A DNA stretch of 64,000 nucleotides from an uncultured Planctomycetales bacterium (GCA_964637165.1 CAZWVI010000001.1:28488-92487); one strand, 5' to 3'; shown: positions 3,949 through 50,167, counted from the first letter of the stretch. A program made the numbers and translations. Notes: generated from the letters alone by a model not told the origin.

Positions 3949-3962
3949 CACTACCCCCCGCG

Positions 3963-8378: not shown

Positions 8379-8395
8379 TACAGCACAATCCCTTT

Positions 8396-14297: not shown

Positions 14298-14448
14298 GTT
14301 CTGTACTATTGTGGATGTACCTTAGCTTGGGAATCCTCGAGCGTTACCACCATCTTAATGGCATGTATTTTGCTAGACTTTCGGTTAGGCCCTACCCTTT
14401 CTCCCCTAAACTAATCCCGAACGGGTGGCCTGTAAATCGACTCCCAAG

Positions 14449-17400: not shown

Positions 17401-17472
17401 GCATTGATTGGTGCCGACCCGGCCGCATTCTTCGAAGTTCAAAGTATTAACTTCGATTGGATAGGCGAATAA
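14449..17472 (+). CDS. Giant predicted lipoprotein (~1007 aa), paralog of the 3963..7520 product (Ig-like N-terminus, poly-glycine core)
   Basis: ATG 14449 gives MRILGKFLLGTLLVLPGC. SbsA-Ig-like motif present (NQPITLVFNDKIDPATVSL). G-runs parallel those in 3963..7520 (QCGAGSGGQGG; SRGGGGGGFW; GAGGGAGGGALQIHSGG; GDAGGGGGAGGGILIQTSG; GNHGGAGGAGLIRFETA). Confidence 0.85.
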   Translation: MRILGKFLLGTLLVLPGCFGATPASAPNHPDQFALSSCSLGCSGTTCAVNSISTNQPITLVFNDKIDPATVSLTELSIIDITSGATPPVEFSVSGNQIIVRPTLFETEAGLTFGFEEDGIYRIQLFADPFTNVIRSVIGRPNITTLDCNIATSGITDLVPGRPQVIFTPDASTPPTSSDFVVTMVFTDLMQKAQLVNSPYGTSPTIGVQIIDDTQSSTIAVNVPGTFDVNFDQDALTTTLVFTPLSPFPGGRDGLRRLKLNFSTQIADIAGNSITNPGSYEIDLPNAATVVDSFTEGFNDLAMYDEGGSGVSMWAASPGAVSSNLDPLTGSHSGGGPGYLGSFVPTSDFTFDTDGMTLESVTGDFLNITDGVFAFDSIHIPEGVRVTAIGSNPLRLFSRGEFLVEGDLDLGGLSAPANFGKYYPRETEIIVGESTGGIFEFEAEGGDPGVGQCGAGSGGQGGMAWYLLDGPGSPANPNYLDENLNGFASGNGDPARYTDNIRWGDVHGANGDGIGGIASSGNPEANPTGIVTDRNNGAGMGSWAWPPVSNTVPSAAEMLNPPPTVVAGMAIESHFDSGAGLFENHALHRSRGGGGGGFWSDGSQGGFFDATSTNPLGDPLTAPVIDAGNNIWEYNDFLDWDHQSGGGVLDADGGQYSLPLGIETLDPNTGLLVGGSGGGGAGSSLHGSWSDQPTLVAGFIDTYRNAAGAGGGAGGGALQIHSGGRLSITGEVSVVGGAGGDSEFMLQIPYSDPAAINSGLPGDAGGGGGAGGGILIQTSGSLQLGADVFQLDGGRGGIGSAGNHGGAGGAGLIRFETATGGESLALLQSSVAPDSSVELAPIGQPGVANLIQNLGVLSGTTADAGIFNGNSAGVRSTWFAPANNVLLLDYTGYTITCRYNTGVGGDQFLVYESGNIHTIPGTTPVWAGFQVGWGSPGQSEPDAISITDWIIPGVAATGDGLTGLRSSLGRMMRFMLVFDQDQVAALIGADPAAFFEVQSINFDWIGE

Positions 17473-26671: not shown

Positions 26672-26689
26672 GCATATTTCACGGGTAGC

Positions 26690-28894: not shown

Positions 28895-28941
28895 ATGAAT
28901 CAGACGTGGGCAAGAGTTGCTGATTACACTAAACTTTGCGC

Positions 28942-29439
28942 ATGGGAAGTAATCATCCAGCAGCACTTTACCCAGGGACCTTTGACCCGGTTACCCGTGG
29001 GCATCTTGACTTAATTCGTCGCGGCCTCGATTTGTTTGGAAGCTTGCAGGTCGCAGTGGCAACCAACGATTCCAAGAAGCCACTATTCTCGACCGAGGAG
29101 CGGGTGCAAATGCTTCAAGACGAGACCGCTGATTTGGAGGGTGTCACCGTGCTCAGTTTTCGTGGTCTGGTCGTTGACCATTGTCGTCAACATCAAATTC
29201 CAGTAATCCTGCGCGGTGTGCGGACCATTTCAGATTTTGAATATGAATACCAAATGGCCTTAACCAACCGCGCGCTCGAGGATCAGATTGAAACTGTATT
29301 CGTCATGCCCTCAGAAGAATATTCTTTTGTTTCTTCCAGGTTAATAAAAGAAGTTTATGCGGCCGGCGGCGACTTGAGTCGCTTTCTTAGCCCGCAAGTT
29401 CGCAGTGCTCTAGTCGACCGATTAGCCGAGAAAAAATAA
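28942..29439 (+). CDS. coaD: Phosphopantetheine adenylyltransferase
   Basis: Shows AALYPGTFDPVTRGHLDLIRR, RGVRTISDFEYE and SSRLIKEV. Confidence 0.9.
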   Translation: MGSNHPAALYPGTFDPVTRGHLDLIRRGLDLFGSLQVAVATNDSKKPLFSTEERVQMLQDETADLEGVTVLSFRGLVVDHCRQHQIPVILRGVRTISDFEYEYQMALTNRALEDQIETVFVMPSEEYSFVSSRLIKEVYAAGGDLSRFLSPQVRSALVDRLAEKK

Positions 29440-35565: not shown

Positions 35566-35587
35566 CGAAATAGCCAGTTAAAAAGAA

Positions 35588-35620
35588 AACTCCTGCGACT
35601 GACAAGCAGCCGCAGGAGTT
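35588..35620. terminator. Bidirectional intrinsic-terminator-like hairpin between convergent genes
   Basis: Inverted repeat AACTCCTGCG (35588-35597) / CGCAGGAGTT (35611-35620). An A-run lies upstream and a T-run downstream. On the minus strand the stem is followed by TTTTCTTTTT. Confidence 0.65.
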
Positions 35621-35640
35621 TTAAGGTTTAAGCTAAGTGC

Positions 35641-38295
35641 TTAGAGACGGTCATCAAGGTCATTTGCAACCTCAAGTGCATCAGTGATTTGTGCGCGGAT
35701 GATGATGATTACATCTTCCTTCTCGTTCGCTTCGCCTTCAGCTTTAAAGAGCATTGAAAGGAAAGGAATCTTGGCAAGGAAAGGTACCTCGGCACGTTGC
35801 TCAACATCAACAATCTTCTTAAGACCAGCAATTACAACTGAGCCACCATCAGGGATGACCGCAGTAGTGTTGGCGCTTGAAACACTTAACTCAGGGAGTT
35901 GCAGCGTAACCGGAGTGGTCAGGCCAGCAAGCGATGAGGTGAATTCAGGGATTGGACGCTTAAGTTGGGCTACGGTTGGGCGCAACTCAAGAGTGATGTA
36001 GCGACGGTCGTGACTGATGGTTGGACGCACATCAAGCACGATGCCATCAGAAACTACGCCAACTTGTGGGTCAGCGATCAAGGCAGCTTGAGCAACTTCA
36101 ACATCCATGTCCTGAACGTAAGTCACCTGGTTAACCACAGTGATGTAAGCGCGTTGAGTGTTGCGTGCTGAAACGGTGCTCGAGTTAAGTTCCTCGGCGC
36201 GGTTTGATTTTTCAACAGCGCGCAGAATCATTGACAACTGAGTGTCGTCAAGGAAAACAAACTGCATGGCCATTCCACCTGCATTTGATAGACGCGACCC
36301 GTAAGGACCGAGAATGTTTTCTGTGCGGGCGCGGATATCGCCATCGCCACCTTCGTTGTAGTAAGCACCGGCAGAAGGGTTGGCTTCAGCACCACTTGGT
36401 AGTCCAGAACCATCATTGTCTAAACCAAGTGAGGCGTTGTCCTCAAGACCTGAAGTTAGGTCGTCAAGGTTGGCCATGTCAGTTGGAGGGGAGAAGGTGC
36501 CGCCTAAGCCGCGGAAGTCAATCCCAACTTCTTGAAGGAAGTCTTTACGAACAGTTAAGAAGCGCGCTTCAATCGTAACCATTGAAGAGATGTAGCCCCG
36601 CATGTCTTGCAAGAACTCGTCAATCTCGCGCTGTACAGCTGGGGTGTGCCAAACAATTAGGTGACCGTTTGAGTAAGTTAAGGAAACTCCCTCAAGTTCT
36701 TCCCAAGTGTTCTTGGCAACGTTGGCCATAACCAAAGTCTCCAAGTTCATTGGGTCAAGAATCGGAACTGGCTCCCCAGTTACGCCACCTTGAATTGACT
36801 CTTCATCGTCTGAATCTTCATCAGGTAGGTGAATGTTGTCAATCTTTGGACCGCTGAAGTCCGTTAGGGTTGAAGTTAAATCTTGAACGTCATGCGCGCG
36901 CAAGATGAATTGACCTTGAGCGGACGAACGAGTGGTGATGTAAACAACACCATGCTTGAAGGTGTAAACAACTTCTGACCCGGCGGCATCGGTGATGACA
37001 CGCAGGGCGTTTTCAACGGTGATGGGGCGGTTTAGGTTTAAATCAAATTCAATTCCTTCTGAATCGACTGCCTCGACTGCATCCGGAGTGACCACAATTG
37101 GTGCATCGGTGTAGGGGCGAAGGCGATTAATTACTTCTTCAAGAGAAGGCTCAGCTTCAACTTGAAAGCCGGGGATTTTGGTCGAGGCAATCTCGGTAAT
37201 AATCGCTGCATTTTCTTCAGCAGTTTCAGGGTCACCACCGATTTCGCGGAAATGCTTGCGTGCTGCTGAAATCTCAGCCCAGTGGTCGAGATCTGGCATC
37301 GAAAGAATTTCGTTAGTTGGAATCATTGCCTCGGCAATGTCTTCTTGCCAACGCTTAAAGCGCTCATTGCGCTCTGTTAGAAAATCATCGTTTACCAACT
37401 CATGGCTGGCACGGTAGGTTGCATCACGCAGTTCCCGCGCGCGATCATTAAGCGGGTCTTCGCGCAGCAAATCTTCGCAAAGTTGCAAGGCCTCGTCATA
37501 GTTCTCTGAATCGAAAGAATCAATCGCAGTGTCAAGCATTAAAGCTAAACGTTGACTACGTTGTGCTGAACGAGCTTCTTCTTCAGCGCGCAATCGTTCC
37601 CAAGTCAATTGCTTTTCATTCTCGCGTTGGTTGGCCATCGCAGTATCGCGTTCAGCCTTCGCACGGTCAAGGGCAGCAGCAACGCGGCCGCTTAAACCAT
37701 TCCAGTCAATGTTGTAGCCAGTTCCCTCAATGCCGGCTTTAGCTAGGGATAGGGCCCCAACAGCTTCATCCAAATCTCCGTCTTCAAGTAGCTTGAAGCC
37801 GCGGTCAGCGTGAGCATGGATTTCTGCTTGCGCGCGTTGAATCCGCGCTTCCAAATTTAAACGTACATCGTCAATGGATCCAGTCAAGGGCACGCTTGCT
37901 CGGCCTAGTGCAACTTGGACTTGGTCAAAGAGTGAACGCACATCACGGTTTCCCGCGTCTAATTCCAAAGCAGCGATTAAAGAGTTTTCAGCTTCAAGTA
38001 GACGACCGTCAGCGAATGCTGAGCGGGCAGTATCTAAATGACCAGAAACAAGTAAAGCTGTCTTCTGCTCACGCAAATCTACATCTTTACGGCCTTGAAC
38101 AACAGGGTCTTGCACCATTGACCCAGGGTCAATGTTTGAGGTCTCGGAAACGACAGGCTGACTGGTGTTGTCGTTGTCGTTTACAACTACAGGGTTAGTG
38201 CAGGCAAAAAGGAGACCGGCCAGCAATGCAGGGCGGAGAACCGGGGACAGGGAGGCTTTCATTAACTTTTTGGGGGGCGGCTCGGAGTGAGCCAT
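35641..38295 (-). CDS. Secretin-family outer-membrane channel lipoprotein (884 aa) with a long TPR/coiled-coil N-terminal extension ('secretin A')
   Basis: Lipobox LLAGLLFAC. The N-terminal ~400 aa are helical and TPR-like. N0/N-domain-like segments are present (ITVENALRVITDAAG...VVYITT; NGHLIVWHTPAVQREIDEFLQDM). The secretin core shows GIDFRGLGG, FLDDTQLSMILRAVEKSNRAEELNSSTVSARNTQRAYI, IPDGGSVVIAGL and VPFLAKIPFLSMLFK. Confidence 0.9.
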   Translation of the reverse strand: MAHSEPPPKKLMKASLSPVLRPALLAGLLFACTNPVVVNDNDNTSQPVVSETSNIDPGSMVQDPVVQGRKDVDLREQKTALLVSGHLDTARSAFADGRLLEAENSLIAALELDAGNRDVRSLFDQVQVALGRASVPLTGSIDDVRLNLEARIQRAQAEIHAHADRGFKLLEDGDLDEAVGALSLAKAGIEGTGYNIDWNGLSGRVAAALDRAKAERDTAMANQRENEKQLTWERLRAEEEARSAQRSQRLALMLDTAIDSFDSENYDEALQLCEDLLREDPLNDRARELRDATYRASHELVNDDFLTERNERFKRWQEDIAEAMIPTNEILSMPDLDHWAEISAARKHFREIGGDPETAEENAAIITEIASTKIPGFQVEAEPSLEEVINRLRPYTDAPIVVTPDAVEAVDSEGIEFDLNLNRPITVENALRVITDAAGSEVVYTFKHGVVYITTRSSAQGQFILRAHDVQDLTSTLTDFSGPKIDNIHLPDEDSDDEESIQGGVTGEPVPILDPMNLETLVMANVAKNTWEELEGVSLTYSNGHLIVWHTPAVQREIDEFLQDMRGYISSMVTIEARFLTVRKDFLQEVGIDFRGLGGTFSPPTDMANLDDLTSGLEDNASLGLDNDGSGLPSGAEANPSAGAYYNEGGDGDIRARTENILGPYGSRLSNAGGMAMQFVFLDDTQLSMILRAVEKSNRAEELNSSTVSARNTQRAYITVVNQVTYVQDMDVEVAQAALIADPQVGVVSDGIVLDVRPTISHDRRYITLELRPTVAQLKRPIPEFTSSLAGLTTPVTLQLPELSVSSANTTAVIPDGGSVVIAGLKKIVDVEQRAEVPFLAKIPFLSMLFKAEGEANEKEDVIIIIRAQITDALEVANDLDDRL

Positions 38296-38315: not shown

Positions 38316-38825
38316 TTACTCCTCTTCGAAGGAGCCGGCAAAGGAAATCTTGGAGAAGCCCTTTGCAATTACAACATCGAGAATGCCAACGACGTCGCCG
38401 TAGACAACACCCTTGCGTGGGTCGATGGTGATGGGGGTGTCATCTTTCTGCTTTTGAGTTTTACTAAAGGCATTTAGGTGACGGTCAAGTCTCGCCAAAT
38501 CGGTGAACTTGGAGGAGCCGACTTCGAACTGAACGAGGCGTCCAACGTAGTGCTTGAGGCGACCTTGAGGTGATGAAGTTGTGCGAGTAGTTGGGTCAAG
38601 AACGAGTTGTCCTTTCTTTTTAACCTTAATGACAATGTCGACCTTTTCAATTTCGTCGGCAGTCGAGGCGCTAGTACCACGGTCCTTGGGCAGAGCAGCA
38701 TCGAGGCGCCCTTCAAGAACTTTGAACTTCAGCGTCACAATAAAGAAGATCAAGAGCAGGAAGGTGACGTCAATCATTGGCGCCATGTCCGGTTTTACTT
38801 CTTCAAACTTTTGAGGTTTACCCAT
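38316..38825 (-). CDS. exbD: ExbD/TolR-family protein (second copy)
   Basis: Shows PDMAPMIDVTFLLLIFFIV (conserved TM Asp) and a periplasmic domain ending PITIDPRKGVVYGDVVGILDV. Its ATG overlaps the upstream TAA (TAATG), with GGAGGAG upstream. Confidence 0.85.
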   Translation of the reverse strand: MGKPQKFEEVKPDMAPMIDVTFLLLIFFIVTLKFKVLEGRLDAALPKDRGTSASTADEIEKVDIVIKVKKKGQLVLDPTTRTTSSPQGRLKHYVGRLVQFEVGSSKFTDLARLDRHLNAFSKTQKQKDDTPITIDPRKGVVYGDVVGILDVVIAKGFSKISFAGSFEEE

Positions 38826-39355
38826 TACTTAACTCCTCCTACTTCCGGCTCAGAGGCAGCCAATTGAACTTTCCAAATGCGAATGCCTTCGCGGGTGCAG
38901 GTTTCCATGATTCGCGAGATGTACTTAAACTCGGTATTTCGGTCTGCACGAATCAAAATTGGATCATCAGGAAGCTTGCCCAAATTTGGATGTTCATCGT
39001 CAGCGACATGCTCCATCCGCTCAGCCCACTTCACCATTTCTTGGGCTAGCATCCAGTAGTAATCAGGTCGCCCTTTGCGGACAGGGTCGGTACGTCCACC
39101 AGAGTCAATGCCTGGCCAGTAGAGATCCTTCTTCTTATGAATGATGGTGCCGTCTGGCATTACGTTCAAAATCGGACGGCCTGGAGGAGGGTCGTCGTGG
39201 CCAGCTTCTACCGCGATTGGTAGTTTTAGGTCCTCGAGTTCCTGTTGAGTCAAGTCGTTAACAATGATGAAAAAGATGATCATCAAAAACGTAACGTCAA
39301 TCATGGGCGTCATGTCCATTTCGATGTCAGTGTCTGGTGTTCCTTTTTTACTCAT
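38825..39355 (-). CDS. exbD: ExbD/TolR-family protein (first copy)
   Basis: Shows MDMTPMIDVTFLMIIFFIIV, then a periplasmic domain (ILIRADRNTEFKYISRIMETC). Confidence 0.85.
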   Translation of the reverse strand: MSKKGTPDTDIEMDMTPMIDVTFLMIIFFIIVNDLTQQELEDLKLPIAVEAGHDDPPPGRPILNVMPDGTIIHKKKDLYWPGIDSGGRTDPVRKGRPDYYWMLAQEMVKWAERMEHVADDEHPNLGKLPDDPILIRADRNTEFKYISRIMETCTREGIRIWKVQLAASEPEVGGVK

Positions 39356-39387: not shown

Positions 39388-40101
39388 TTACTCAGTCGGG
39401 CGGAAGCGGTCGAACATTTCTTCAACGATGGCACCAATCTCAAGCGAGAGCATGTTTACACGGTTACGGAAGAAAACGAAGAACGCAGTTACCGGAATCG
39501 CCACGGTTAGACCCAAAACGGTAGTAACCAGAGCCAATTGAATGTCACCGGCAAAATCTCGTGGTTCAACGGATGCGGACGATGCAATAACACCAAACGC
39601 ACCAACCATTCCAGTAACCGTACCGAACAAACCCATCATGGGCGAGATTCCAGCGATAAGTGAAAGGTAGCCAATCTTTTGGTGAAGCTTGACTGACTCT
39701 TCGTCTTCCATTTCTTCAACAGATTTTTCCAGAGCTGCGAAAGGGTAACCAATTCGGCGAACTCCAGCGGCCACGATGTTAGTGAACATGCATGGTTCTG
39801 TCTCGCAGTACTCAAGAACTTCTTGGTAATTACCAGCGTTCATAAGCTCCTCAACTTCGTCAATAATTTCTGGCGGCGCAAGTTTCTCGCGCTTGATGCT
39901 CATGAAGTGTTCAACGATGAGTGTTCCAGCAACAACTGAAATACCAATGATGATAAAACCAATGGTACCACCCTTAGAGATGGCGTCGAAGATTCCGACC
40001 TTGTTGGCAGCAGCTACAGGAGCGGCTTCTTGGGCAAAGGCGTATGAGGTTGTGAGGAACCAGCCGGAAAGTAGGCCGGCGAGTTGGTGAAGACGGGTCA
40101 T
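39388..40101 (-). CDS. exbB: MotA/TolQ/ExbB-family proton-channel protein
   Basis: N-terminal signal-like segment, then three TM helices with the family motif (LSLIAGISPMMGLFGTVTGMVGAF...LALVTTVLGLTVAIP). Confidence 0.9.
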   Translation of the reverse strand: MTRLHQLAGLLSGWFLTTSYAFAQEAAPVAAANKVGIFDAISKGGTIGFIIIGISVVAGTLIVEHFMSIKREKLAPPEIIDEVEELMNAGNYQEVLEYCETEPCMFTNIVAAGVRRIGYPFAALEKSVEEMEDEESVKLHQKIGYLSLIAGISPMMGLFGTVTGMVGAFGVIASSASVEPRDFAGDIQLALVTTVLGLTVAIPVTAFFVFFRNRVNMLSLEIGAIVEEMFDRFRPTE

Positions 40102-40205: not shown

Positions 40206-41279
40206 TTAGCCATCAAGCATTGCGCGGGCTTTAACCGCCCAACTAGTAGAAGAGTAGTCATCTACTAGGCGTTGGTAATAAGACTTCGCAGAAGTTGGGG
40301 TATTTTCCAGCTCTGCACAAGTCTCGGCCAGCTCAAAAAGTGCTCTTGCACTAACTTCTTGGCTAGCTGGCATTGTCGCAACCACTTGCGCTAAAAGAAG
40401 TTGCGCGTCGCGTAAGGCTCCTGACTGGCGCGCCGCACGAGCCGCTCCAACAGTAGCCGCTGCGCGAACATCTAGGCTGGAATTACGATCTCGACCGAGG
40501 TTTTCCCAGTAAGAGCGCGCTTTTGCTACTCCATCTTTTGCTTCAATGGAATCGCCAAGGAGGATTTGCCCACGGCTATGTAGTTTGCGGAGGCGGGTGC
40601 GGAGCGCATTTGAGCTATCTCCGGACTTCAGCGCGTCAGCTATCTTCGGCACTAAGTCGCGTAGGCGAGCTTCGGCAACAGTTGCTTGTTTGCCTATAAG
40701 GAATACCTCGCAACGACCGAGCCTAGCACCGAATTCAATGTGGTTTGGCAGGGTCTTTTCAAACGCGAATGCGGCCAATTTCTCAAAAAGCTTGGCAGCT
40801 GAATCGGTATCACCAGCGGCGGCAGTGGCCATGGCTTGACCGGTTTGAGCTCGTGCTGAGAACCAACTATCTGGGTTGGCAGCTAGCCAGGTAGCAAAGG
40901 CTTTTTGAGCTTCGCTAGCTTTGCCTCCATCAATTTGCGACCAGGCGAGAAGCGTTTCAGCATTAAGCAAGCCTGCCAAGGTAGAGGTTAGGCCATCACT
41001 GGATGCTGCGATCGAGCTAAATGTCCCAGTAGCGTTTTGATAGTCAAAGTCAGCTAGGTATCGGTTTCCAGCACTTAAAGCGGAATTTACCGCAACTAGA
41101 TCCAAATCAAGAATTTGCGAACTTTTGAGCGACTTCGACTTGCCGCGACCATCTTTCCAGGTAACTTTTGAGACCGTGGCGGTTTCAATTGTTCCGTCGG
41201 TAACTGTTCCATCAAGCTGAATGATTGCATCTTGGGCGAATGCGGGAACGGCAAGTAGTAGGGCGCAGAGAGCAGGCAT
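40206..41279 (-). CDS. Secreted TPR-like repeat protein (~357 aa)
   Basis: The ATG at 41279 gives an immediate signal peptide (MPALCALLLAVPAFAQDA), 2 nt after the upstream stop. The rest is Ala/Leu-rich helical repeats. No Pro-rich spacer or TonB C-terminal domain was recognised. Confidence 0.7.
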   Translation of the reverse strand: MPALCALLLAVPAFAQDAIIQLDGTVTDGTIETATVSKVTWKDGRGKSKSLKSSQILDLDLVAVNSALSAGNRYLADFDYQNATGTFSSIAASSDGLTSTLAGLLNAETLLAWSQIDGGKASEAQKAFATWLAANPDSWFSARAQTGQAMATAAAGDTDSAAKLFEKLAAFAFEKTLPNHIEFGARLGRCEVFLIGKQATVAEARLRDLVPKIADALKSGDSSNALRTRLRKLHSRGQILLGDSIEAKDGVAKARSYWENLGRDRNSSLDVRAAATVGAARAARQSGALRDAQLLLAQVVATMPASQEVSARALFELAETCAELENTPTSAKSYYQRLVDDYSSTSWAVKARAMLDG

Positions 41280-41281
41280 GA

Positions 41282-44167
41282 TTATTGACGGTTCTTGAGC
41301 CATTTAAGAATGTTTGCTAGGTCAGCGCCGGCTGCTTCCTCCCCGAGGTCGGGGGCTAAGCGCTCAATGCTACTGATTAGGTTCGTGTGACGACCAGCAA
41401 AAGTGGTGTCCGAAGTAGACCGCTTGTAAAGCAAGTATGCGTATTGCATACGAGCTTGCCAATAAGGGGCGTGTTCGAATTTGCTAACGTTATTATCATT
41501 AGCGTCCTTTTCGGCTAGTTGGGTAAGGGTAGTAATTAGGGTTGTGGCCTTCTCGTAACTTTCAAGTCCACCGATTCCTTCAACTTCAACAACACGGCCT
41601 TCGCGAATAACTGGCCAGCCAACCAAAACCTTTGCGGCGGCATTAATCACTCGCAAGTTGTTGGGTTTCTTGTCCAGCAGTTCGTCAATGATTGGACCCG
41701 CTTGAGCAGTGTTAAATTGCATCAGGTAAGCATCGACCAAATCTAATTGAGCAAAGAAGCGATTGCTACTTGAGAAGGATTTGTCATCAGCAAAGTTGAC
41801 AATGATTTTTTCTAGAAGAGTAGTGGCTGCAGCTGGTTGCTGAATGTCTAAACGAAGGCGAGCTTCCTTAAGAAGGTTCTGCCAAGCTACTTTGCCGGCG
41901 CGGTTATTTGCTACTCCTAGGTAGTCAGTCGCAGTGGTTAGCAAACCGAGTTTCACTTTTTCGTCAGTCTCACTGTCAGCGCGTTTACTCCAAAAACCGA
42001 ACATGTAGTGGGCAGCTTGCGAAATACGCGAGTCTGGATATCCACCGCTAAGTAGTGATTCGTAGGCGCTAGTGGCGGCCGCATCGTCACCCAAGGCTAA
42101 GTGTGCTTCAAGCATCGAGACAATTGCCGCTGCTGCGTAACTGCGTTGCTCAGGATAGCGATCAGGGAATCCAGAGTATGAGTCAAGAACGCCTTGCCAA
42201 TGAATATCTTGACCGGCTTTAGCTTGTTTGTATCGTGTTTGGCCACGATAGAAATCTGCTTGAGATGTTGCGTCTTTTCTGGTCTTACGTCCGCGTGCGT
42301 CCTGAGGAGTGTTGTCAGGATTTTGCGTGAAAACTTCTAAGTAGTCATTGAAAATGCGGAAGGCTTCATCGCCAGCGCTGGCTTGCCAGGCAAGTTTGCG
42401 AAATTCGCACATGCCAATTTGCACCATGGCATTTTCAAAATAGCGACTTCCACGTTCAATTTTTTGGTAACTTGCAATGGAAGTGTTTAAGGCTTTTAGT
42501 GCTGCAGTAACTTCAGTGGATCCCTTTGCCTTACCGCGTGCTGCTCGGCCTTTATCTTTAGCCAAGCTGTAGTCTGATTGAGCTGCGTTCCAGATTGCTT
42601 GGTCTGGTGCGCCGCCGGTACTGGAAGCCGAGACTGCCGCAATCGAATCTTTAAAAAATCGATCAAGAGCGGCGTCGCCAGGGTTGGAGCTGCGGAATTT
42701 GTCGGCTAGCTTCATCCAAGCCTCAGCATTCTTAGCAGCGAACTCCTCGTCATCTGGGAAAAGTTCAAATCCTAATTGGTGACTAACAGCAGCTTCTAAA
42801 TCTTGTTCTAGGTAGGAGTAAGAACGGGCAAGGTAGTAGTAGGTGGCCGCGCCGAATTCGTCTGTTTGGCGACTTTTTCCTAAGCGGGTTAGGAGTAATA
42901 AAAACCCATCGCGTGCTTTGGCAAACTCTTTTTGAAAGTAAGCACCCTCAGCTGCAGAGTAAGCAACCCCGAGGTCAATTTTGGCATCTTCTGGGGCCGC
43001 GGCAATTGCTAGACCCATTACCTCGTTTGCATCGAGGCGCAGGCGGCTGGTTTCATTTTCACGAGCAACCAATTCGGCAACGGCGATCGCTTCAGCAAAA
43101 TTTCCGCTGCGCACTTGATTGCGTGCTACTAATAACAAAACCCGGTAGCCACTTTGGGAGAGGAATACACCCTCGTCATCAACCCATTGACGGAAAGTTT
43201 CGCCCAAGGTTACCGCATCTGCGGCGCGTCCCCATTTGGGGTAAAGCTTCATCATGCCTAAGTAGGCATCTTGTTGAACTTCGCGGCGGCCATCTACTTC
43301 AGCATCGGCCATTTCGTGGCCTTCTGGCACGGAGTTTTCAATGACGTGAAGATAGAAGGCTTCAGACTCTTCGAAAGTCATGTCGGCATCTTCGTTTTTG
43401 CCACGCGCCAATTCGGCTTCAGCGCGCAAAACATAAGTGTCGGCCATTTGTTTGTAGGCCATGAATCCAGGACGCGAGGAATCGCCAGCTAGCAAGGCGA
43501 AGTCCTCAAATAACTCTAAGCATTTTTGGGAACGTTCCAGGCGTTCAATGGTGCTTGGGTCGTAGGCAGCCGCCCAGAAGTAGAATATTTGGGCTTTAAA
43601 GTATTTCGCCGGAAAGTAAGCGGTGTAACGCAGAGAATCTTTCTCGTCGCCACTGGCCATGCTTTCCCATTGGCTAATAATTTTATCTAGTCCATCTTTA
43701 GCGGCTAGGAATAAGGTGTTGGCCTTTTCCGTTAGGGCGCTGCGCTCCTCCGAACCAACCGGGAGATTGACAATTTCAATCTGTAAGGCGGAGCCGTATT
43801 GAAAAGCTAATTCCCCAAGTGCTACTTGGGCGTTGGTGGCTAGTCGCGCCGGCGGCGAGTCCGCCAAGAAATCGGCGTAGGCACTTGCCGCTGCATTGAG
43901 CGCTTCAAGCTTTTGCTCGGGGTTAGCGCGGCGCGCAGTAGCTTTGCGAACGTCACAGCGAGCGAGCAACAACTCACTACGTCCAGCACCGCTAGCATTT
44001 TTCAATGCCTTGGATAGGACCTCCTCGGCCATTTCGTCAAAGCCAAGTTCAGTGGTCAAAGCGCGCGCGAAGTTAGCTTCGCGGCGGAGATGGAGATCGC
44101 CGGCCGGCTCCTGGAGGGGAGCTGGTAGGCAGAAGAGAAGCGTAGCCGTGGCTAGCATGCCTAGCAT
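41282..44167 (-). CDS. Large secreted TPR/helical-repeat protein (961 aa)
   Basis: N-terminal hydrophobic signal (MLGMLATATLLFCLPAP). The whole length consists of TPR-like A/Y/L-rich helical pairs. No enzymatic motif recognised. Confidence 0.75.
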   Translation of the reverse strand: MLGMLATATLLFCLPAPLQEPAGDLHLRREANFARALTTELGFDEMAEEVLSKALKNASGAGRSELLLARCDVRKATARRANPEQKLEALNAAASAYADFLADSPPARLATNAQVALGELAFQYGSALQIEIVNLPVGSEERSALTEKANTLFLAAKDGLDKIISQWESMASGDEKDSLRYTAYFPAKYFKAQIFYFWAAAYDPSTIERLERSQKCLELFEDFALLAGDSSRPGFMAYKQMADTYVLRAEAELARGKNEDADMTFEESEAFYLHVIENSVPEGHEMADAEVDGRREVQQDAYLGMMKLYPKWGRAADAVTLGETFRQWVDDEGVFLSQSGYRVLLLVARNQVRSGNFAEAIAVAELVARENETSRLRLDANEVMGLAIAAAPEDAKIDLGVAYSAAEGAYFQKEFAKARDGFLLLLTRLGKSRQTDEFGAATYYYLARSYSYLEQDLEAAVSHQLGFELFPDDEEFAAKNAEAWMKLADKFRSSNPGDAALDRFFKDSIAAVSASSTGGAPDQAIWNAAQSDYSLAKDKGRAARGKAKGSTEVTAALKALNTSIASYQKIERGSRYFENAMVQIGMCEFRKLAWQASAGDEAFRIFNDYLEVFTQNPDNTPQDARGRKTRKDATSQADFYRGQTRYKQAKAGQDIHWQGVLDSYSGFPDRYPEQRSYAAAAIVSMLEAHLALGDDAAATSAYESLLSGGYPDSRISQAAHYMFGFWSKRADSETDEKVKLGLLTTATDYLGVANNRAGKVAWQNLLKEARLRLDIQQPAAATTLLEKIIVNFADDKSFSSSNRFFAQLDLVDAYLMQFNTAQAGPIIDELLDKKPNNLRVINAAAKVLVGWPVIREGRVVEVEGIGGLESYEKATTLITTLTQLAEKDANDNNVSKFEHAPYWQARMQYAYLLYKRSTSDTTFAGRHTNLISSIERLAPDLGEEAAGADLANILKWLKNRQ

Positions 44168-44206: not shown

Positions 44207-44235
44207 GTCGGCCGAGGCTTAAATCCTCGGCCGAC
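44207..44235 (-). terminator. Strong hairpin between secretin B and the TPR genes (terminator/attenuator or RNA-stability element)
   Basis: Perfect 11-bp inverted repeat GTCGGCCGAGG (44207-44217) / CCTCGGCCGAC (44225-44235) with a 7-nt loop. It lies 10 nt downstream of the secretin B stop on the minus strand and is followed there by TTCAGTTT. Confidence 0.4.
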
Positions 44236-44244
44236 ATTTAGCAA

Positions 44245-46890
44245 CTACTGGGCAGAGCCCGGTGTAGCTGATGGTTCGAATTCTTCAGGCACGATAATCC
44301 GTGCGGATAGAAGAATGATCAGTTTCTGGTAGGACTCGTACTCGCCTTTCCGTGAAAAGAAGAAGGAGAGAATTGGAATCCGGTTAAGAATTGGGATGCC
44401 TGATTCTAGGTTTTGTTGATTAATCACTTTCATTCCACCAAGTAGCAAGGTGCCACCGTCTGGAATCATCACGCTGGTTGAAATCTTTTGCAGTTCCAAC
44501 TCTGGCAATTGCATTGTTACAGGTGAACCAGTTCCAAGTGATGTTTGGAATGAAGGGATTGGTCGAACTAGAGTCGCAACAGTTGGGCGAACATCAACGT
44601 AAGTGAAACGGCGGTCAGCTGAGACTACCGGTCGCACGTCGAGATACACACCGTCGCGGGCAACCCGAACAATCGGGTCAGCAATCGCCGCAGCTTGGGC
44701 GATTTCAACGTCAAAGTCACCAACGTATGAAACTTGGTTGGCAACTGTAAGGGTCGCACGTTGAGTATTTGAAACAGTAAGAGTTGATTCAGTTAGAACT
44801 TCACGTCGCTCAGACTTTTCAACTGCGCGCAACACCATGTTGAGTTGGGTGTCATCAAGGAATGTGTACTGCAAGCTTAAACCGCCAGAGCCCACCAAGC
44901 CTTCTTCGCTACCTAAACCTGAATCGTACAGGTGCTCAGTGCGTGAGATGATGTTGACGTTATCGCCAGCTTCACGGAAGTACATTCCTGAATCATTGCC
45001 AGTACCCAAGGTGCCAGGGGCGCCAGGTGAGCCTGGGTCAGTTCCGAAATCGTCGAAGACAAAATCATCTCCTTTACCAGAGATTCCAGATGTTGAATCA
45101 TCGCCAAGTCCGCGGAAGTCAACTCCAATGTCTTGCAAGAATGAATCTTCAACTTTTAAGAAGCGAACTTTGATGTCCACCATAATGTTTGAAGACTTGC
45201 GCAAATCTTCCAAGAGGCTCTTGATTCTTTCTTGGGTTGAAGGCGGCGCGTTAACAATCAACGTACCATTTTCAATTGCGACAGTTGCAGTGTCGTCCCA
45301 TGAGTCAGGCTCAATGTTCTCTTGGATGGCAGCCAGCAAATCATCCTCAGTAAGAACTTTTGCTTCGCGTTCAGGCAATTCTTCTTCAACTAATTCAATG
45401 CCACCAGAAGGGGCAAGGTTTACATCAGTTCCGACAAAGTCTTTAATTGGCCGAACAATGTCACGTACTTCAAACTTGTTGAGAATGTTGCCGCCGACTG
45501 ATTCTTCAGAACTCATTACATTGACCACGCCATTACGAATAACAAAACGCAATTGACCTTGGGTCATGTCTTCGATGATGGAAAGGATTTGCGAGACTGG
45601 CATCGCACGAGTGAAGGCCAAGTTAATAGTCTTTACATCTTCGTCCATGTCTTCACGTACAGCCCGCGAAACTACAAAGTTGACTCGAGTGTAGGCGGCT
45701 AAGTTGTCAGCAATTTCTTCAATTGTGTTTTCAAAGCGCGCTTCAATTCGAGTTGCGTCCAGTAGATTTTGGATTGCTGCTTCACTTGGGTCGGCCCCAG
45801 TTGCTGAAACCATCTTGTCTAGTGATTCTCGCTTAAGCACTGTGTTGCGCCAGTAATCGATGTCATGCTCGATAATGTTCTTTGGCGGCACAGCCATGGT
45901 GCGCAATTCATCAAAAGTAGCTTTCCATTGCTGACGGAAAGATGTGTCAGTTTCACGTTGACGGTTAGCGTGCCAAGCAGCGTTAGCTACTTCACGTAAG
46001 CCCAGTGCGTCTTGGTTGCGTGGATCCAATTCAAGTAAGGCGTCAAGCACCTTGACTGAATCGTTGTAATGACCTTGTGTGAACTTTTGGTTTGCGTCTT
46101 GGAATAAAGTTCGTACTCGGTTGCTTAAGTAGTTCTCGCGTGCGTCACGAGTCGCTTGTGCTTCTTGTTTGGCAGCAGCGGCTTCGGCTGAGCGTTGCGC
46201 GGTGAAGTAATCACTGCGCGCTTGGCTGGCTTCACTTAATTTTGATGCAACTAAGTTGTAGTCCAATGAACCGGCGGCCAAACTTGGTGAGGTGCGAAGA
46301 GCCATCTCAGCAGCTTGGTAAGAGCTCACGGCTGAATCAAAGTCGCCAGTCGCCATGGATGAATCGCCATCTTTGATTAGGCCTTCAACATGGATACGAC
46401 GATTCGCGCGGCGCAGCTGAGCTTGGGTGATGCGGTCTTCGGCTGAATCTACATCCCATGCACCACCAGCAAGCTGTTGTTCGCAACGACGTAAGCCATC
46501 GCGGCCATCACGGCTGTTCGGGTCAAGGTCGAGGGCATCGGCGTAAAGCATCGCGGCACCTTTGTAGTCTCCACGTTGGAACGCTTCATCGGCCTGGGCA
46601 ATAAACTGTCCACTTAGTAGACGAGCTTTTGCCTGATGGCGGTCAAGTTGGGCGCGCTCGTCAGAAACCGGCGCTTGAGGCGCAGGGTCTTGAACAGCAA
46701 CAGGTGTTGGGGCTGCGGGCGCAGCAGTGGGTGTGACCTCTACAGACGGCTCGGCTGGAGCTTCGGCAGATTCTTCGCTATCGGCCCAAGAGCCGAAATC
46801 GTCGAGAAACCACTCCTCGTCATTAGACTGGCAAGAAGCCAGAACGAGGGCGGGGAGCATGAACAGGGGGAACCGGTATTTGCGCATCAA
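44245..46890 (-). CDS. Secretin-family outer-membrane channel lipoprotein (881 aa), full-length paralog of secretin A ('secretin B')
   Basis: Lipobox LPALVLASC. TPR-like N-terminal region (FQRGDYKGAAMLYADALDLDPNS). N-domain-like segments are present (NGVVNVMSSE; NGTLIVNAPPSTQERIKSLLEDL). The secretin core shows GVDFRGLGD, FLDDTQLNMVLRAVEKSERREVL, IPDGGTLLLGGM and IPILNRIPILSFFFS. Confidence 0.9.
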   Translation of the reverse strand: MMRKYRFPLFMLPALVLASCQSNDEEWFLDDFGSWADSEESAEAPAEPSVEVTPTAAPAAPTPVAVQDPAPQAPVSDERAQLDRHQAKARLLSGQFIAQADEAFQRGDYKGAAMLYADALDLDPNSRDGRDGLRRCEQQLAGGAWDVDSAEDRITQAQLRRANRRIHVEGLIKDGDSSMATGDFDSAVSSYQAAEMALRTSPSLAAGSLDYNLVASKLSEASQARSDYFTAQRSAEAAAAKQEAQATRDARENYLSNRVRTLFQDANQKFTQGHYNDSVKVLDALLELDPRNQDALGLREVANAAWHANRQRETDTSFRQQWKATFDELRTMAVPPKNIIEHDIDYWRNTVLKRESLDKMVSATGADPSEAAIQNLLDATRIEARFENTIEEIADNLAAYTRVNFVVSRAVREDMDEDVKTINLAFTRAMPVSQILSIIEDMTQGQLRFVIRNGVVNVMSSEESVGGNILNKFEVRDIVRPIKDFVGTDVNLAPSGGIELVEEELPEREAKVLTEDDLLAAIQENIEPDSWDDTATVAIENGTLIVNAPPSTQERIKSLLEDLRKSSNIMVDIKVRFLKVEDSFLQDIGVDFRGLGDDSTSGISGKGDDFVFDDFGTDPGSPGAPGTLGTGNDSGMYFREAGDNVNIISRTEHLYDSGLGSEEGLVGSGGLSLQYTFLDDTQLNMVLRAVEKSERREVLTESTLTVSNTQRATLTVANQVSYVGDFDVEIAQAAAIADPIVRVARDGVYLDVRPVVSADRRFTYVDVRPTVATLVRPIPSFQTSLGTGSPVTMQLPELELQKISTSVMIPDGGTLLLGGMKVINQQNLESGIPILNRIPILSFFFSRKGEYESYQKLIILLSARIIVPEEFEPSATPGSAQ

Positions 46891-46968
46891 GCTTTATGCG
46901 GTGTTAAGTGAAGTAACTGCTGGCCGTTTGGCCTTTTAGGGGGGGGACAAGGATCTGAACCAAGGAGA

Positions 46969-47895
46969 TTACTCGAGACTTAGAGGTAGTAGTAGTTCTA
47001 GGTCGAGAGCAGTTCCACAAGGATCCGTAAGACGCATGCTTGCAAGCAAGCGAGACTGGTCCAACGAGCGGGTACGCTCGGCTGGACGCCCCTCGATTAT
47101 GACCCTGCGGCCCAATGCGTCAAAGCGAGGAATACTAGTTTGTACGGAGATGGTGGTATCACGGACATTCAAACCTTCTAAAACCCACTCAGTATTTCCA
47201 ATAGGAGCGCCTGGCCAGGCCTTGAAAGGACCTAATTGTGGCCGTCCTGGCCGATTCAGGAAAAGCATAATTGAGCCATCTTCAGTGAGACCTTCAGTTG
47301 TCCAATTCGTCCGCCTTGGCATGGTCGCGGTGGCCGCAACTGGCGCGGATTCAGCACGTACCTGAGAACCGTCAAGAACGCTACTCGGGCGGTTCAATAT
47401 AGTTCTTAGCCTATATCTGTAAGGTGTTCCCTCACAGTCGATTACGTCAAAATATTCATTCTTTTTTGTGCTTCCGAGCGGGGTCGCTGAACCGTCTCCA
47501 GCCCATCTCGTCAGCTTGTATTCAAGGCCATTGATGGGGTTGCGTATATCAGCAACCCAGGTAAGGCTGATTCCACCTGTTTGAGGCGAAGCGGTGAAGT
47601 CAATAGGCGGGTAAACCTGTGAAATGTCATCAAGGTCGGCGGTGTTGGACGAGGATGTTGTGGTGAAAACGCCAAATGTTTTTCTGCTAGGACGAACTTT
47701 GCGGCCACTTTTTTTAATGAATTTAGAAAAATTTTGGCTGGCGGCAAAAATTTGCTCTGAACTTACGACTCCACTTGGTGAATCAGAGTTTGTGGCCGGC
47801 GCTACTGCGGTTGGAGTTGGCAGGAAAGTAAGAACGGCAAATAGCAGGAGCGAAATCGCTGCGGTCACAATCGCCAGAAATCTATTGACCGACAT
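46969..47895 (-). CDS. Bitopic membrane protein with a possible FN3-like periplasmic domain, in the position of PilP/GspC upstream of the secretin
   Basis: N-terminal TM helix (FLAIVTAAISLLLFAVLTFL), an S/T-rich linker, then a beta-rich region (GGISLTWVADIRNPINGLEYKLTRW...YRYRLRTI). The functional role is inferred from position only. Confidence 0.5.
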   Translation of the reverse strand: MSVNRFLAIVTAAISLLLFAVLTFLPTPTAVAPATNSDSPSGVVSSEQIFAASQNFSKFIKKSGRKVRPSRKTFGVFTTTSSSNTADLDDISQVYPPIDFTASPQTGGISLTWVADIRNPINGLEYKLTRWAGDGSATPLGSTKKNEYFDVIDCEGTPYRYRLRTILNRPSSVLDGSQVRAESAPVAATATMPRRTNWTTEGLTEDGSIMLFLNRPGRPQLGPFKAWPGAPIGNTEWVLEGLNVRDTTISVQTSIPRFDALGRRVIIEGRPAERTRSLDQSRLLASMRLTDPCGTALDLELLLPLSLE

Positions 47896-48448
47896 TGTTC
47901 AAAATTTGTTTTACGCTAAACACTCTCATGGTGAAATCTAATTCAAGACCATCTCCGTTTTCGCTGATAGAAATATGGACGGGATCGCTTAAATAACCAA
48001 GGCGTTCAGGCATTTCAAGTAAGTGGAAGCAAAACGGAAGTAGGCTTGCGCTGCTGCCAGAAGCATTTAACTTAAGTTCGATGCATGAAAGTGATGCAAG
48101 ATGTTTGATTGACAAGCCATTTGCGTGCCCATCTCGACCAAGTCCAAGCTCGGTCCATCGTTCTAACTCAAGTCGCGCTAATTGACCAAGAAAGGGAGTC
48201 GCTAGTGATTCACTGCCGGCTAAATCGCTAAGACCCCAATCGCTTAAGCGCGTTTTAATTTGACTAACACTTGCCGCTGACGCAGCTTTGCCTAAAGTCG
48301 GCAAATACCAATCGTGATATTCCTCGATTGCCGGCGTCGAAGTCTTTTGTGAAGTTACAGTTTGTGGCAATGAAGTTGAACGATGCCACCACTGCTGGGC
48401 AAGAGCAATGTTGAATCCAATTAGGAGTGAGCAGAATATGTATTTCAA
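47882..48448 (-). CDS. Small bitopic membrane protein (188 aa), PilO/GspM-like by position and topology
   Basis: Single N-terminal TM (IFCSLLIGFNIALA) plus a ~160-aa periplasmic part. ATGA start/stop overlap with the upstream gene. No sequence motif recognised. Confidence 0.45.
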   Translation of the reverse strand: MKYIFCSLLIGFNIALAQQWWHRSTSLPQTVTSQKTSTPAIEEYHDWYLPTLGKAASAASVSQIKTRLSDWGLSDLAGSESLATPFLGQLARLELERWTELGLGRDGHANGLSIKHLASLSCIELKLNASGSSASLLPFCFHLLEMPERLGYLSDPVHISISENGDGLELDFTMRVFSVKQILNNVGQ

Positions 48449-49521
48449 AATTTATTCCGCTGATTGCTAACCCGACCGATTAAAACTCGGGGATCATGTT
48501 GACTTGAATTAAGTTTCATCGTCTCGATTAAATCAGTGTACTTAATTTTGTCGTTATCGCTGCGTGTTAGGCGTAAATGCACTTCACGGCTGGCGATGCC
48601 CGAGGATAATTCGATGTGGCTTAATGATTGAGCAGGTGCATGCTTTAGGATTTCGTCGAGGGCATCAATAGTTGCCATCCGCCTTTCGAGTAAACGGTCG
48701 ATTTCGAGTGGTAATTCGCCTAAACGGCGCAATCTGGGCATTTCGTCAGCAACTTGAGTTGAGCTTTCTTGCTCAGTTGTAAGAAGTGATTTTTGTTGGG
48801 TTTGATTAATCCAAAAGTTGAAAAGACTAAAGCTTGTTGCCAGCAAAACGCTCGCTAACCAAATCCGGTCAAGCGAAGATTTTTTAACTGGAGTTAGCGC
48901 TCCGTGTCGGGTTGGATTTTGCGCAAAAATAGCGGCACCTAAGGCTGCACGATTGGCTCCGTGTTCTTGCGGCGTGCTTTCAATTCTGATAGCTTTATAT
49001 TTCTTGGCAACACTTTCGAAAAGTAATTCTTGGCCACCAGCATTGGGCTCGGTTGCAATAACAATAGTGTTGATCGTGTGTGGGATACTTCGACATATTT
49101 TTGCAAAAACTTGATCAATCGACCCGTCGCGACTTTCGCGGCAATGAAAACTATCGCCGGGTGTTGCGGCACTGCAGTGAAGTGCATCATCGCTTAACCA
49201 GAGGTGTAAGTCGTTGTCGGTGAAACGGCCACATTCCCAATCCCAGCTTGCGGCTGCGACCGCCGGATGAACTAGACAGCTTGGGTGCGGACGTATTAAT
49301 GGCCAACGTTTTGGAAGTTGGCTTGGCCGGTGATTACCATCACAAATGCTGACTCCCCAGTTCAAGTGATGTCCAGCGCATAAACTTTTATAAAGTTGAG
49401 TTAGGTTTTTTAAGTTGGATTGGCCAGCTGAAATAACGCTTGGTGCTTGTTGCGGCAAACACTCGAGTAATGCCCAATCAACTTGAGTGCCGTTTAAGTG
49501 GAATCCTAATGACTTAACCAT
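48445..49521 (-). CDS. GspL / PilM-PilN-fusion-like bitopic protein (cytoplasmic domain, one TM helix, periplasmic domain)
   Basis: A ~215-aa N-terminal soluble domain, one TM helix (IWLASVLLATSFSLFNFWI), then a coiled coil and a ~100-aa C-terminal domain. This topology matches assembly-platform proteins of T2SS/T4P. Assignment is by architecture and synteny, not a motif match. Confidence 0.45.
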   Translation of the reverse strand: MVKSLGFHLNGTQVDWALLECLPQQAPSVISAGQSNLKNLTQLYKSLCAGHHLNWGVSICDGNHRPSQLPKRWPLIRPHPSCLVHPAVAAASWDWECGRFTDNDLHLWLSDDALHCSAATPGDSFHCRESRDGSIDQVFAKICRSIPHTINTIVIATEPNAGGQELLFESVAKKYKAIRIESTPQEHGANRAALGAAIFAQNPTRHGALTPVKKSSLDRIWLASVLLATSFSLFNFWINQTQQKSLLTTEQESSTQVADEMPRLRRLGELPLEIDRLLERRMATIDALDEILKHAPAQSLSHIELSSGIASREVHLRLTRSDNDKIKYTDLIETMKLNSSQHDPRVLIGRVSNQRNKF

Positions 49522-50167
49522 TAGTTTTCGGTAGGGCGTGGATACCTAAAAAACGCATCGCCACTTGCAAATCCTGCCAGCTGGCAGCTTTGAGTGCGGG
49601 CTGTTCGACAAGTTGCAGTGGGTGATAACTGGCAATTATTGGAATGTTAGAATCCTGCATACGCTGTAGTTGTCCGCGCGCATCTTCCAAATTTGTCACA
49701 TTGGGAACCAGGGCTTTGATTGACTGCTCGCCCATAGCGATTATTAATTTGGGGTTGGCAGCCAGTAATAATTGTTGAAATGGTGAAGCGTCACCGTCCA
49801 TCCAGCAGGCGAAAACGGTGGCACGGGGCAATTTCATGCCGCTTTCAAGCATTTTGGCAAGAAGTTCACCTGACTCACCGGAATAAATATTTTGACCTCG
49901 GCCGTTGTTGTCAGGCGCATCAAGGATCAAGAATAGTTGCGCATTGGGGTCGCCCTCACCATTTAAAGTGGCTATTTCTGCAGTTGGAACCGAGGAATCG
50001 GCAATTGGTGGCTTGGCGCGAGGGCTATCTTGGATAAAATCACCGAGCCCAATTTGCTCCAATTCTTCCAGCAACAGGGCGCAGGCGGCCCGTTGTAGCT
50101 GGTCGGGAGGAGGGGGGTGACTCATGTTCTGTATTGTGGCGTATTTCTGAAGGGACTCAAGCCACAA
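49514..50167 (-). CDS. Uracil-DNA glycosylase-superfamily protein (family-4-like, degenerate catalytic motif)
   Basis: Shows LFLILDAPDNNGRGQNIYSGESGELLAKML (the family-4 pattern is GEAPG..E...G.PF.G.AG.LL) and a C-terminal ASYHPL motif. No Fe-S cysteine cluster. Its 3' end overlaps the next gene by 8 nt. Confidence 0.5.
   Translation of the reverse strand: MWLESLQKYATIQNMSHPPPPDQLQRAACALLLEELEQIGLGDFIQDSPRAKPPIADSSVPTAEIATLNGEGDPNAQLFLILDAPDNNGRGQNIYSGESGELLAKMLESGMKLPRATVFACWMDGDASPFQQLLLAANPKLIIAMGEQSIKALVPNVTNLEDARGQLQRMQDSNIPIIASYHPLQLVEQPALKAASWQDLQVAMRFLGIHALPKTNG

Follow-up and report, generated by a model that had tools for sequence, protein, structure and literature searches.

We analysed a stretch of 64,000 nucleotides (nt) from an uncultured Planctomycetales bacterium (GCA_964637165.1), hereafter the window, whose positions are used throughout. 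In this marine Planctomycetota genome, three unannotated genes, here called A, B and C, lie upstream of an outer-membrane secretin, secretin B, within a minus-strand operon. On balance, A-B-C probably represents a highly diverged and reduced type IV pilus alignment subcomplex, the equivalent of PilM/PilN-PilO-PilP or GspL-GspM-GspC. An alignment subcomplex ties the outer-membrane secretin to the inner membrane; A-B-C is not in itself a complete pilus or secretion system. The genes in question are the following:

48445-49521, minus strand: protein A, 358 aa, ATG start (open reading frame (ORF), with AlphaFold2 (AF2) model, Foldseek matches and transmembrane (TM) span)
47882-48448, minus strand: protein B, 188 aa, TTG start (ORF, conserved across 10 aligned loci)
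46969-47895, minus strand: protein C, 308 aa, ATG start (ORF, with AF2 model and Foldseek matches)
44245-46890, minus strand: secretin B, 881 aa (Pfam Secretin, E 3.8e-22, and TPR_2)

A metagenome scan with a secretin alignment yielded 79 loci, which were mapped by profile searches. All 13 loci mapped as A-B-C share this gene order, with identities of 26-54% to the window proteins, and each of the three proteins has invariant residues across its family alignment. The larger order UDG-A-B-C-secretin-TPR-TPR-ExbB-ExbD-ExbD (UDG, uracil-DNA glycosylase superfamily; TPR, tetratricopeptide repeat) recurs in Planctomycetota metagenome-assembled genomes and marine metagenome contigs, and the conserved cluster adjoins the der/mraZ/dcw region in relatives. 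Reading frames overlap by 8 nt between the UDG gene and A, by 4 nt between A and B and by 14 nt between B and C, with a spacing of 78 nt from C to secretin B. An earlier sequence-only reading of the window had described three genes with coupled starts and stops upstream of secretin B, and the A/B and B/C overlaps, together with the order kept in the 13 loci, bear this out. Based on conservation and synteny, we rejected the possibility that A, B and C are spurious ORFs; the three genes are inherited together with the secretin.

All three families have few members. When 1.84 billion representative proteins were scanned in full with HMMER, 19 representatives of family A were returned at E ≤ 0.001, and word-indexed searches returned 15 relatives of C and three of B. 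Neither the window proteins nor their family members matched any Pfam, NCBIfam or PDB sequence entry in single-sequence and profile searches, as expected from the same earlier reading, in which no family signature had been recognised. Profile-profile comparisons by hhalign, covering A with GspL and HofM, B with GspM and HofO, and C with GspC and HofP (all from Escherichia coli), as well as A with B, A with the PilM_2 fusions described below and B with its putative counterpart B', gave nothing significant (E 0.02-0.36, probability ≤ 2%).

The AF2 model of protein A, based on an 18-sequence alignment, reached a mean pLDDT (predicted local distance difference test) of 87.3. Residues 1-201 are predicted to form two beta-beta-beta-alpha-beta-alpha lobes with no inserted subdomains, giving a cytoplasmic ASKHA core of about 205 aa without subdomains 1C or 2B. 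The sole hydrophobic span (220-238) lies inside a helix at 217-255, which is followed by a disordered segment (256-266), a further helix (272-294) and four strands (300-351). This agrees with the topology proposed from sequence, namely a cytoplasmic domain, one TM helix, a coiled coil and a periplasmic domain; the model places long helices and a four-stranded periplasmic domain after the TM span. An actin-like fold in the N-terminal domain, whose presence had been left to be checked, was found by AF2 and Foldseek.

In the Foldseek comparison with the PDB, the top matches of protein A all belonged to the ASKHA fold. Rank 1 was the ROK kinase 2hoe (E 2.6e-6) and rank 2 Pseudomonas aeruginosa PilM (5eou_A, E 7e-6), accompanied by six further PilM chains; the cytoplasmic domain of GspL in complex with GspE (4pht_X, E 3.8e-4) stood at rank 44. 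Type II pantothenate kinase, BcrAD-type activases, EutJ and FtsA (7q6i) were also matched. The predicted fold by itself cannot single out PilM or GspL over kinases. Protein A is set apart from the kinases because it combines an ASKHA-TM-periplasmic architecture with synteny to a slot held by PilM_2 proteins in other loci. The same layout is that of GspL and of PilM-PilN fusions. Protein A is thus most likely a reduced PilM-PilN fusion of GspL-like architecture, since in sister operons its slot holds a PilM_2 domain joined to a TM protein.

These sister operons became apparent from the comparison of the related loci. Their conserved core consists of a UDG-like gene, a first lipo-secretin, TPR proteins of about 950 and 360 aa, ExbB, two ExbD and usually a second secretin. 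A UDG-like gene occupies the head position in nearly all related loci, whether or not they contain A-B-C, and in about 50 of them it lies directly upstream of A, of the PilM_2 fusion or of the first secretin. Four states were found for the interval that separates the UDG-like gene from the first secretin. The first, A-B-C, characterises the window's clade. In the second, represented by L017, A is shortened to 163 aa (L017 positions 5925-6416) comprising the TM and periplasmic part only, while B and C are kept; here the UDG-like gene abuts the shortened A and leaves no space for an ASKHA domain.

The third state is found in L058, L059, L060 and L066, where a protein of 557-575 aa, M', occupies the slot of A between the orthologous UDG-like gene and the B', C' and secretin genes. 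Pfam PilM_2 is present in M' as a full domain (E 2.7e-19, profile positions 1-338 of 340), after which come a TM helix and some 170 periplasmic residues. Its neighbour B' (281-292 aa; not mapped in L066) has a TM segment and a helix and gave no significant match to Pfam, NCBIfam or PDB sequences. C' is homologous to C, as shown by hmmsearch (E 3e-10 to 6e-9) and by jackhmmer, which merges both families. In the fourth state, the UDG-like gene is followed directly by the secretin without A-B-C; this was seen in about 30 loci including L018 and L020/L044.

A rough neighbour-joining tree of the C-terminal 620 secretin residues, computed without support values, places the second secretins in a separate clade. 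The M'-B'-C' loci sit on deep branches of the first-secretin clade, and L017, L018 and L020 fall within the A-B-C clade. Read most simply, this pattern means that an ancestral module of PilM-PilN fusion, B' and C' was reduced in the lineage of the window and repeatedly lost elsewhere. The module is an optional accessory to this machine and not its engine, since the secretin, the TPR proteins and the Exb motor occur without A-B-C in many relatives. The sequence-only reading had missed the larger conserved operon, in which A-B-C is an optional insert that many close relatives lack.

The reduction of protein A extends to its nucleotide-binding motifs, as judged by sequence inspection. PilM-type proteins carry G-I-D-I-G at the first strand. 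In A, strand beta1 reads L-G-F-H-L with near-invariant G6 and H8, so that the phosphate-1 Asp is replaced by a near-invariant His, and the second hairpin (DLxLWL) contains no glycines and no Gly-rich phosphate-2 loop. The register of these motifs was derived from the AF2 strands and from a comparison within M', where the L060 protein reads WGIHV and the others WGIDV, the same Asp-to-His change that is fixed in A. Further invariant residues across the 18 sequences are W93, G98, R99, P121, A193, G195 and A196. Because of the conserved His in place of the phosphate-1 Asp and the missing Gly-rich phosphate-2 loop, we infer that the cytoplasmic domain neither binds nor hydrolyses ATP. The earlier suggestion of a scaffold that works without the usual ATPase docking partner fits the core of about 205 aa, the Asp-to-His replacement and the L017 protein, which has no cytoplasmic domain at all. 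As a side observation, the N-terminus of E. coli HofM (L015), QIGLHLQQQEAVAVAIVR, aligns with residues 4-20 of A, SLGFHLNGTQVDWALLE, at an hhalign E of 0.12, which is not significant; HofM and A share G-x-H where PilM has G-x-D.

Protein C was modelled at a pLDDT of 85.7 from 15 sequences. Its TM span (residues 7-25 by hydrophobicity; TM helix at 3-24 in the AF2 model) is followed by an S/T/P-rich linker of low confidence at about 26-96, which includes a helix at 46-62 and low-pLDDT segments at 31-43 and 77-88. The remainder is predicted to form two all-beta sandwich domains, one resembling fibronectin type III (FN3) at 98-182 and a second at 186-302. The topology described from sequence therefore stands with regard to the TM helix, the S/T-rich linker and the FN3-like domain, except that two beta domains were found where one had been claimed. 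The best Foldseek matches were tandem FN3 and cytokine-receptor domains (E 4e-5 and weaker). Across the 15 sequences, which share 29-53% identity, 33 columns are invariant, including P-R-F-D-x-L-G-R-R, D-P-C-G and two Cys. The second sandwich is the most conserved part, as would be expected of a surface that meets the secretin. Homologues of C precede the secretin in 24 of the fetched loci, and C or C' lies directly 5' of it in every locus having one. Protein C is an analogue of PilP/GspC by position and layout only and is not detectably homologous to them; the proposal that it is a diverged PilP/GspC homologue could not be upheld, given its FN3-type sandwiches and the absence of a PilP or GspC homology region (HR) domain from its top 50 Foldseek matches.

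In a 10-sequence alignment, protein B begins with a hydrophobic segment, continues with a variable linker and ends in a conserved domain of about 100 aa. Residues E94, L95, R97, W98 and G131 are invariant in the 10 loci, and an H-L-L...G-Y motif is nearly so. In the window copy, hydrophobic residues 3-17 are followed by ALA-QQ, a short and signal-peptide-like arrangement below the TM threshold used. Longer N-termini resembling anchors are present in the orthologues from L009, L011 and L012. The N-terminal segment of B may be a signal peptide or the TM anchor attributed to it from sequence. A crude analysis of hydrophobic periodicity suggests beta-beta-alpha-beta-beta over residues 109-179, preceded by a helix, a pattern compatible with the PilN/PilO/GspM fold. 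From position, topology and this periodicity, B is a putative PilO/GspM-like partner.

Secretin B is a PVC-type (Planctomycetes-Verrucomicrobia-Chlamydiae) lipoprotein whose N-terminal region contains TPRs and whose C-terminal part is a secretin domain. The latter scores 79 bits against Pfam PF00263 (cut-off 27.5), and the lipobox LASC20 contains a Cys (C20) that is invariant in orthologues. Residues 147-727 match the NCBIfam entry Amuc_1098_fam with 96 bits at a cut-off of 750, and partial matches to MshL and PilQ were likewise below their cut-offs. The closest solved structures are phage pIV (7ofh) and Myxococcus PilQ (3jc8); among solved structures, secretin B is nearer to PilQ/pIV than to GspD.

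Taken together, these features suggest how the module could work. Proteins A and B would pair in the periplasm via the helix and beta domain of A, in the manner of PilN/PilO or GspL/GspM. The C-terminal sandwich of C would contact the periplasmic N-domains of secretin B, as the HR domain of PilP/GspC contacts N0, and the linker of C would contact A and B, so that C bridges A/B to the secretin. The cytoplasmic domain of A would serve at most as a nucleotide-free docking surface, or may be on its way out.

Beyond the module and secretin B, the operon and its flanks contain the following features:

49514-50167, minus strand: UDG-superfamily gene, 217 aa, operon head (Pfam UDG, E 3.8e-8)
44207-44235, minus strand: GC-rich hairpin with an 11-bp stem, immediately 3' of the secretin B stop codon (terminator-like scan, consensus match only)
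41282-44167, minus strand: 961-aa helical/TPR-like protein with signal peptide (weak TPR_14 match)
40206-41303, minus strand: 365-aa TPR protein with CpoB/YbgF-like C-terminus (TIGR02795 tol_pal_ybgF, 3.5e-9, below cut-off)
39388-40101, minus strand: ExbB/TolQ-like gene (sub-threshold NCBIfam TolQ and ExbB; Pfam MotA_ExbB in orthologues)
38825-39355 and 38316-38825, minus strand: two ExbD/TolR-like genes (sub-threshold NCBIfam TolR and ExbD; Pfam ExbD in orthologues)
35641-38295, minus strand: secretin A, 884 aa, lipo-secretin closing the cluster (Pfam Secretin, E 2.4e-24)
35586-35622, minus strand: strong terminator-like hairpin with a 16-bp stem, 3' of secretin A (terminator-like scan)

Judged by its sequence relationships, the set of ExbB and two ExbD is a stator unit driven by the proton-motive force (PMF). 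It is encoded together with the two TPR proteins, and no recognisable TonB or TolA was found in the operon by Pfam and NCBIfam scans. The family of the 961-aa protein comes next after the first secretin in nearly all related loci, and the position of the 365-aa TPR protein is conserved across them. The hairpin at 44207-44235 may be an internal attenuator or processing site between the operon halves; with both hairpins considered, the cluster may be transcribed as two units or with an internal attenuator. At the operon head, the UDG gene is translationally coupled to A. Its window copy reads LILDAPDNNG, against a family-4-like FVGEAPGADED in the copy of L005, and its active-site motif looks degenerate.

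How firmly the identification as an alignment subcomplex can be held depends on what speaks for and against it. Besides the evidence given above, a prepilin peptidase is encoded in the window. Several results weigh against it. ROK kinases, type II pantothenate kinases and BcrAD activases match the fold of A equally to PilM, and no sequence or profile link was found between A and PilM, HofM, GspL or the syntenic PilM_2 fusions (hhalign E 0.12-0.36; 0.12 for E. coli HofM and 0.36 for E. coli GspL). None of the 18 members of family A matches Pfam PF11104 (PilM_2), even at E ≤ 5, and no GspL-family match was obtained in Pfam or NCBIfam. Protein B shows no profile similarity to GspM, HofO or any PDB chain (hhalign E 0.19-0.34 for E. 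coli GspM and HofO). For C, hhalign gave nothing against E. coli GspC and HofP (E about 0.2), and neither PilP nor GspC appeared among its best 50 Foldseek matches, which were FN3, cytokine-receptor and Ig domains instead. No gene for a pilin, a PilB/GspE ATPase or a PilC/GspF platform protein lies in the 64-kb window. Finally, L018 and L020 keep the secretin operon without A-B-C, with secretins 55-57% identical to secretin B, and therefore the secretin is not strictly dependent on the module. Of the likeness to GspL-GspM-GspC or PilM/N-PilO-PilP proposed from sequence, the part concerning A is thus supported by fold, architecture and slot, the part concerning B is a candidate likeness, and the part concerning C is supported by position and topology only.

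The same observations can be read in other ways. A-B-C could be the inner-membrane adaptor of the ExbB/ExbD-TPR-secretin machine and not a pilus-type scaffold in function, for example a TonB/TolA-like element carrying the PMF to secretin B for gating or for polymer uptake or export. The operon does provide ExbB, two ExbD and two TPR proteins without a recognisable TonB or TolA, C is bitopic and carries its C-terminal globular domain on a long flexible linker, as in the general TonB/TolA layout, and TPR-tolQ-tolR-tolR clusters of PVC bacteria are reported to pair with non-canonical transducers (PMC12204202). However, A-B-C is missing from most related operons although ExbB, ExbD, the TPR proteins and both secretins are retained, so that the transducer of the motor must be something else; moreover, the TM helices of A and C contain no conserved His or SHLS-like motif, and a hairpin separates secretin B from the TPR/Exb half. 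A role of A-B-C as transducer of the Exb motor is therefore unlikely, and we regard the adaptor explanation as a whole as unlikely too. Still less probable, in our view, is that A-B-C is what is left of a decaying ancestral PilM/N-O-P module and does no useful work in this lineage. The stepwise series from the PilM_2 fusion through the ASKHA core of about 205 aa to its absence in L017 and the absence of the whole module in L018 and L020 would suit such decay, as would the replaced catalytic Asp in A, but A, B and C are intact, coupled ORFs throughout the 13 A-B-C loci, and the invariant positions (33 columns in 15 sequences of C, the seven residues listed for A in 18 sequences) point to strong purifying selection.

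The prominence of ROK kinases (2hoe, E 2.6e-6) and type II pantothenate kinases among the Foldseek matches also raises the question whether A is an unrelated membrane-tethered ASKHA enzyme, such as a sugar or pantothenate kinase-like protein or an activase, whose adjacency to the secretin is coincidental. This we consider very improbable: Pfam and NCBIfam reveal no kinase-family signature, the phosphate-1 Asp is missing, A carries a TM helix and a periplasmic domain, and it is strictly linked to B, C and the secretin, with a PilM_2 protein replacing it in sister loci. A function of A as a kinase was rejected, as the motifs are lacking and TM and periplasmic parts are present. Under the alignment-subcomplex reading, A-B-C works like, and probably descends from, a PilMNOP or GspLMC scaffold.

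Comparison with known systems shows which features are shared. With PilMNOPQ of type IVa pili (Pseudomonas aeruginosa, Myxococcus xanthus), the module has in common the order of actin-like, bitopic, beta-domain and secretin genes, an ASKHA fold in A with PilM among the best matches and PilM_2 in the A slot of sister operons, and a secretin nearest to PilQ and pIV among solved structures. It differs in that a single chain combines PilM and PilN, the ASKHA domain is shortened to some 205 aa and has His as phosphate-1 residue, and C is TM-anchored with FN3-type sandwiches, whereas PilP is a lipoprotein with an HR domain; furthermore, no sequence-level similarity to the four proteins was detected, and no pilB, pilC or pilin gene lies nearby. 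The likeness to GspL-GspM-GspC-GspD consists in the ASKHA-like and probably non-ATP-binding cytoplasmic domain of A with its TM helix and small periplasmic domain, and in C, which like GspC is TM-anchored and encoded next to the secretin. In contrast, there was no match to Pfam T2SSL, T2SSM or T2SSC, the hhalign comparisons with E. coli GspL, GspM and GspC were empty, gsp operons place C-D first and L-M last, no GspE, GspF or pseudopilin genes occur in the window, and secretin B is a TPR-lipoprotein that is not GspD-like.

The nearest described counterpart in the PVC superphylum is the Akkermansia muciniphila cluster Amuc_1098-Amuc_1102, where three "hypothetical" envelope proteins accompany a TPR-secretin and an FtsA/PilM-like protein (PMC5332112, PMC4960237). 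Both belong to the same superphylum, have a secretin with an N-terminal TPR region and group it with an actin-like protein and small unannotated proteins bearing signal or TM segments. However, A, B and C remained unmatched in the NCBIfam scans that returned Amuc_1098_fam for the secretins, the match of secretin B lay far under the cut-off as given above, and ExbB/ExbD, large TPR proteins and a second secretin are unreported in these two publications. The downstream half of the operon, with a CpoB-like TPR protein, ExbB/TolQ and two different ExbD/TolR, shows exactly the layout of the "TPR - tolQ-like - two tolR-like" motor clusters with non-canonical force transducers recently described in PVC bacteria (Mol Biol Evol 2025, PMC12204202). 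Here, secretins and the 961-aa helical protein surround the motor, whereas those clusters have a vWA transducer, and no motor-secretin link is described in that publication. We found no description in the literature of a secretin/ExbBD/TPR operon in PVC bacteria, although the linkage of secretins with a PMF motor is widespread in the fetched metagenome loci.

Elsewhere in the window, the prepilin peptidase gene (Peptidase_A24; 8258-9382, plus strand) is followed by a gene for an OmpA-family protein with a coiled-coil N-terminus (to 10102). A six-frame scan of the window detected no class-III pilin signal motif. A ComM-like Mg-chelatase/AAA protein is encoded beside ComEC (25163-28966, minus strand), some 7 kb away from secretin A; ComEC, with a Pfam Competence match and the metallo-beta-lactamase motif HGDSDH, belongs to the DNA-uptake hardware. 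Given the prepilin peptidase and ComM/ComEC in the window, other parts of the genome may encode a type IV filament or competence system. Very large proteins of 1056, 1191 and 1015 aa, with at most a weak match to the bacterial Ig-like family Big_5 and no other annotation, are encoded at 778-7520 and 14425-17472 (plus strand).

These results indicate that fold, architecture and synteny can still reveal secretin scaffolds that have diverged past the reach of every sequence profile. The type IV filament superfamily would gain three unannotated protein families, from a phylum with poorly understood envelope machines. The graded series of A, from full PilM through a core ASKHA domain to none, constitutes a natural experiment on what the alignment complex can do without. 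More surprising than A-B-C itself is the surrounding two-secretin/Exb-motor operon with its graded loss of the scaffold. A further-reaching interpretation, which at present appears unlikely, is that the whole operon encodes an undescribed envelope machine of Planctomycetota and relatives, in which PMF-served secretins retain a vestigial pilus scaffold. If true, two TPR-lipo-secretins would be served by an ExbB/ExbD stator and giant TPR proteins without a cytoplasmic ATPase, the PilM/N-O-P vestige would be visible at every stage (full PilM, minimal ASKHA, TM-only, lost), and the loci would document, as a record left by nature, how a secretin system exchanged both its energy source and its partners in the inner membrane. 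No described system explains the linkage of two secretins, an Exb/Tol motor and TPR proteins, which makes it a target for learning how Planctomycetota move polymers or DNA across their enlarged periplasm.

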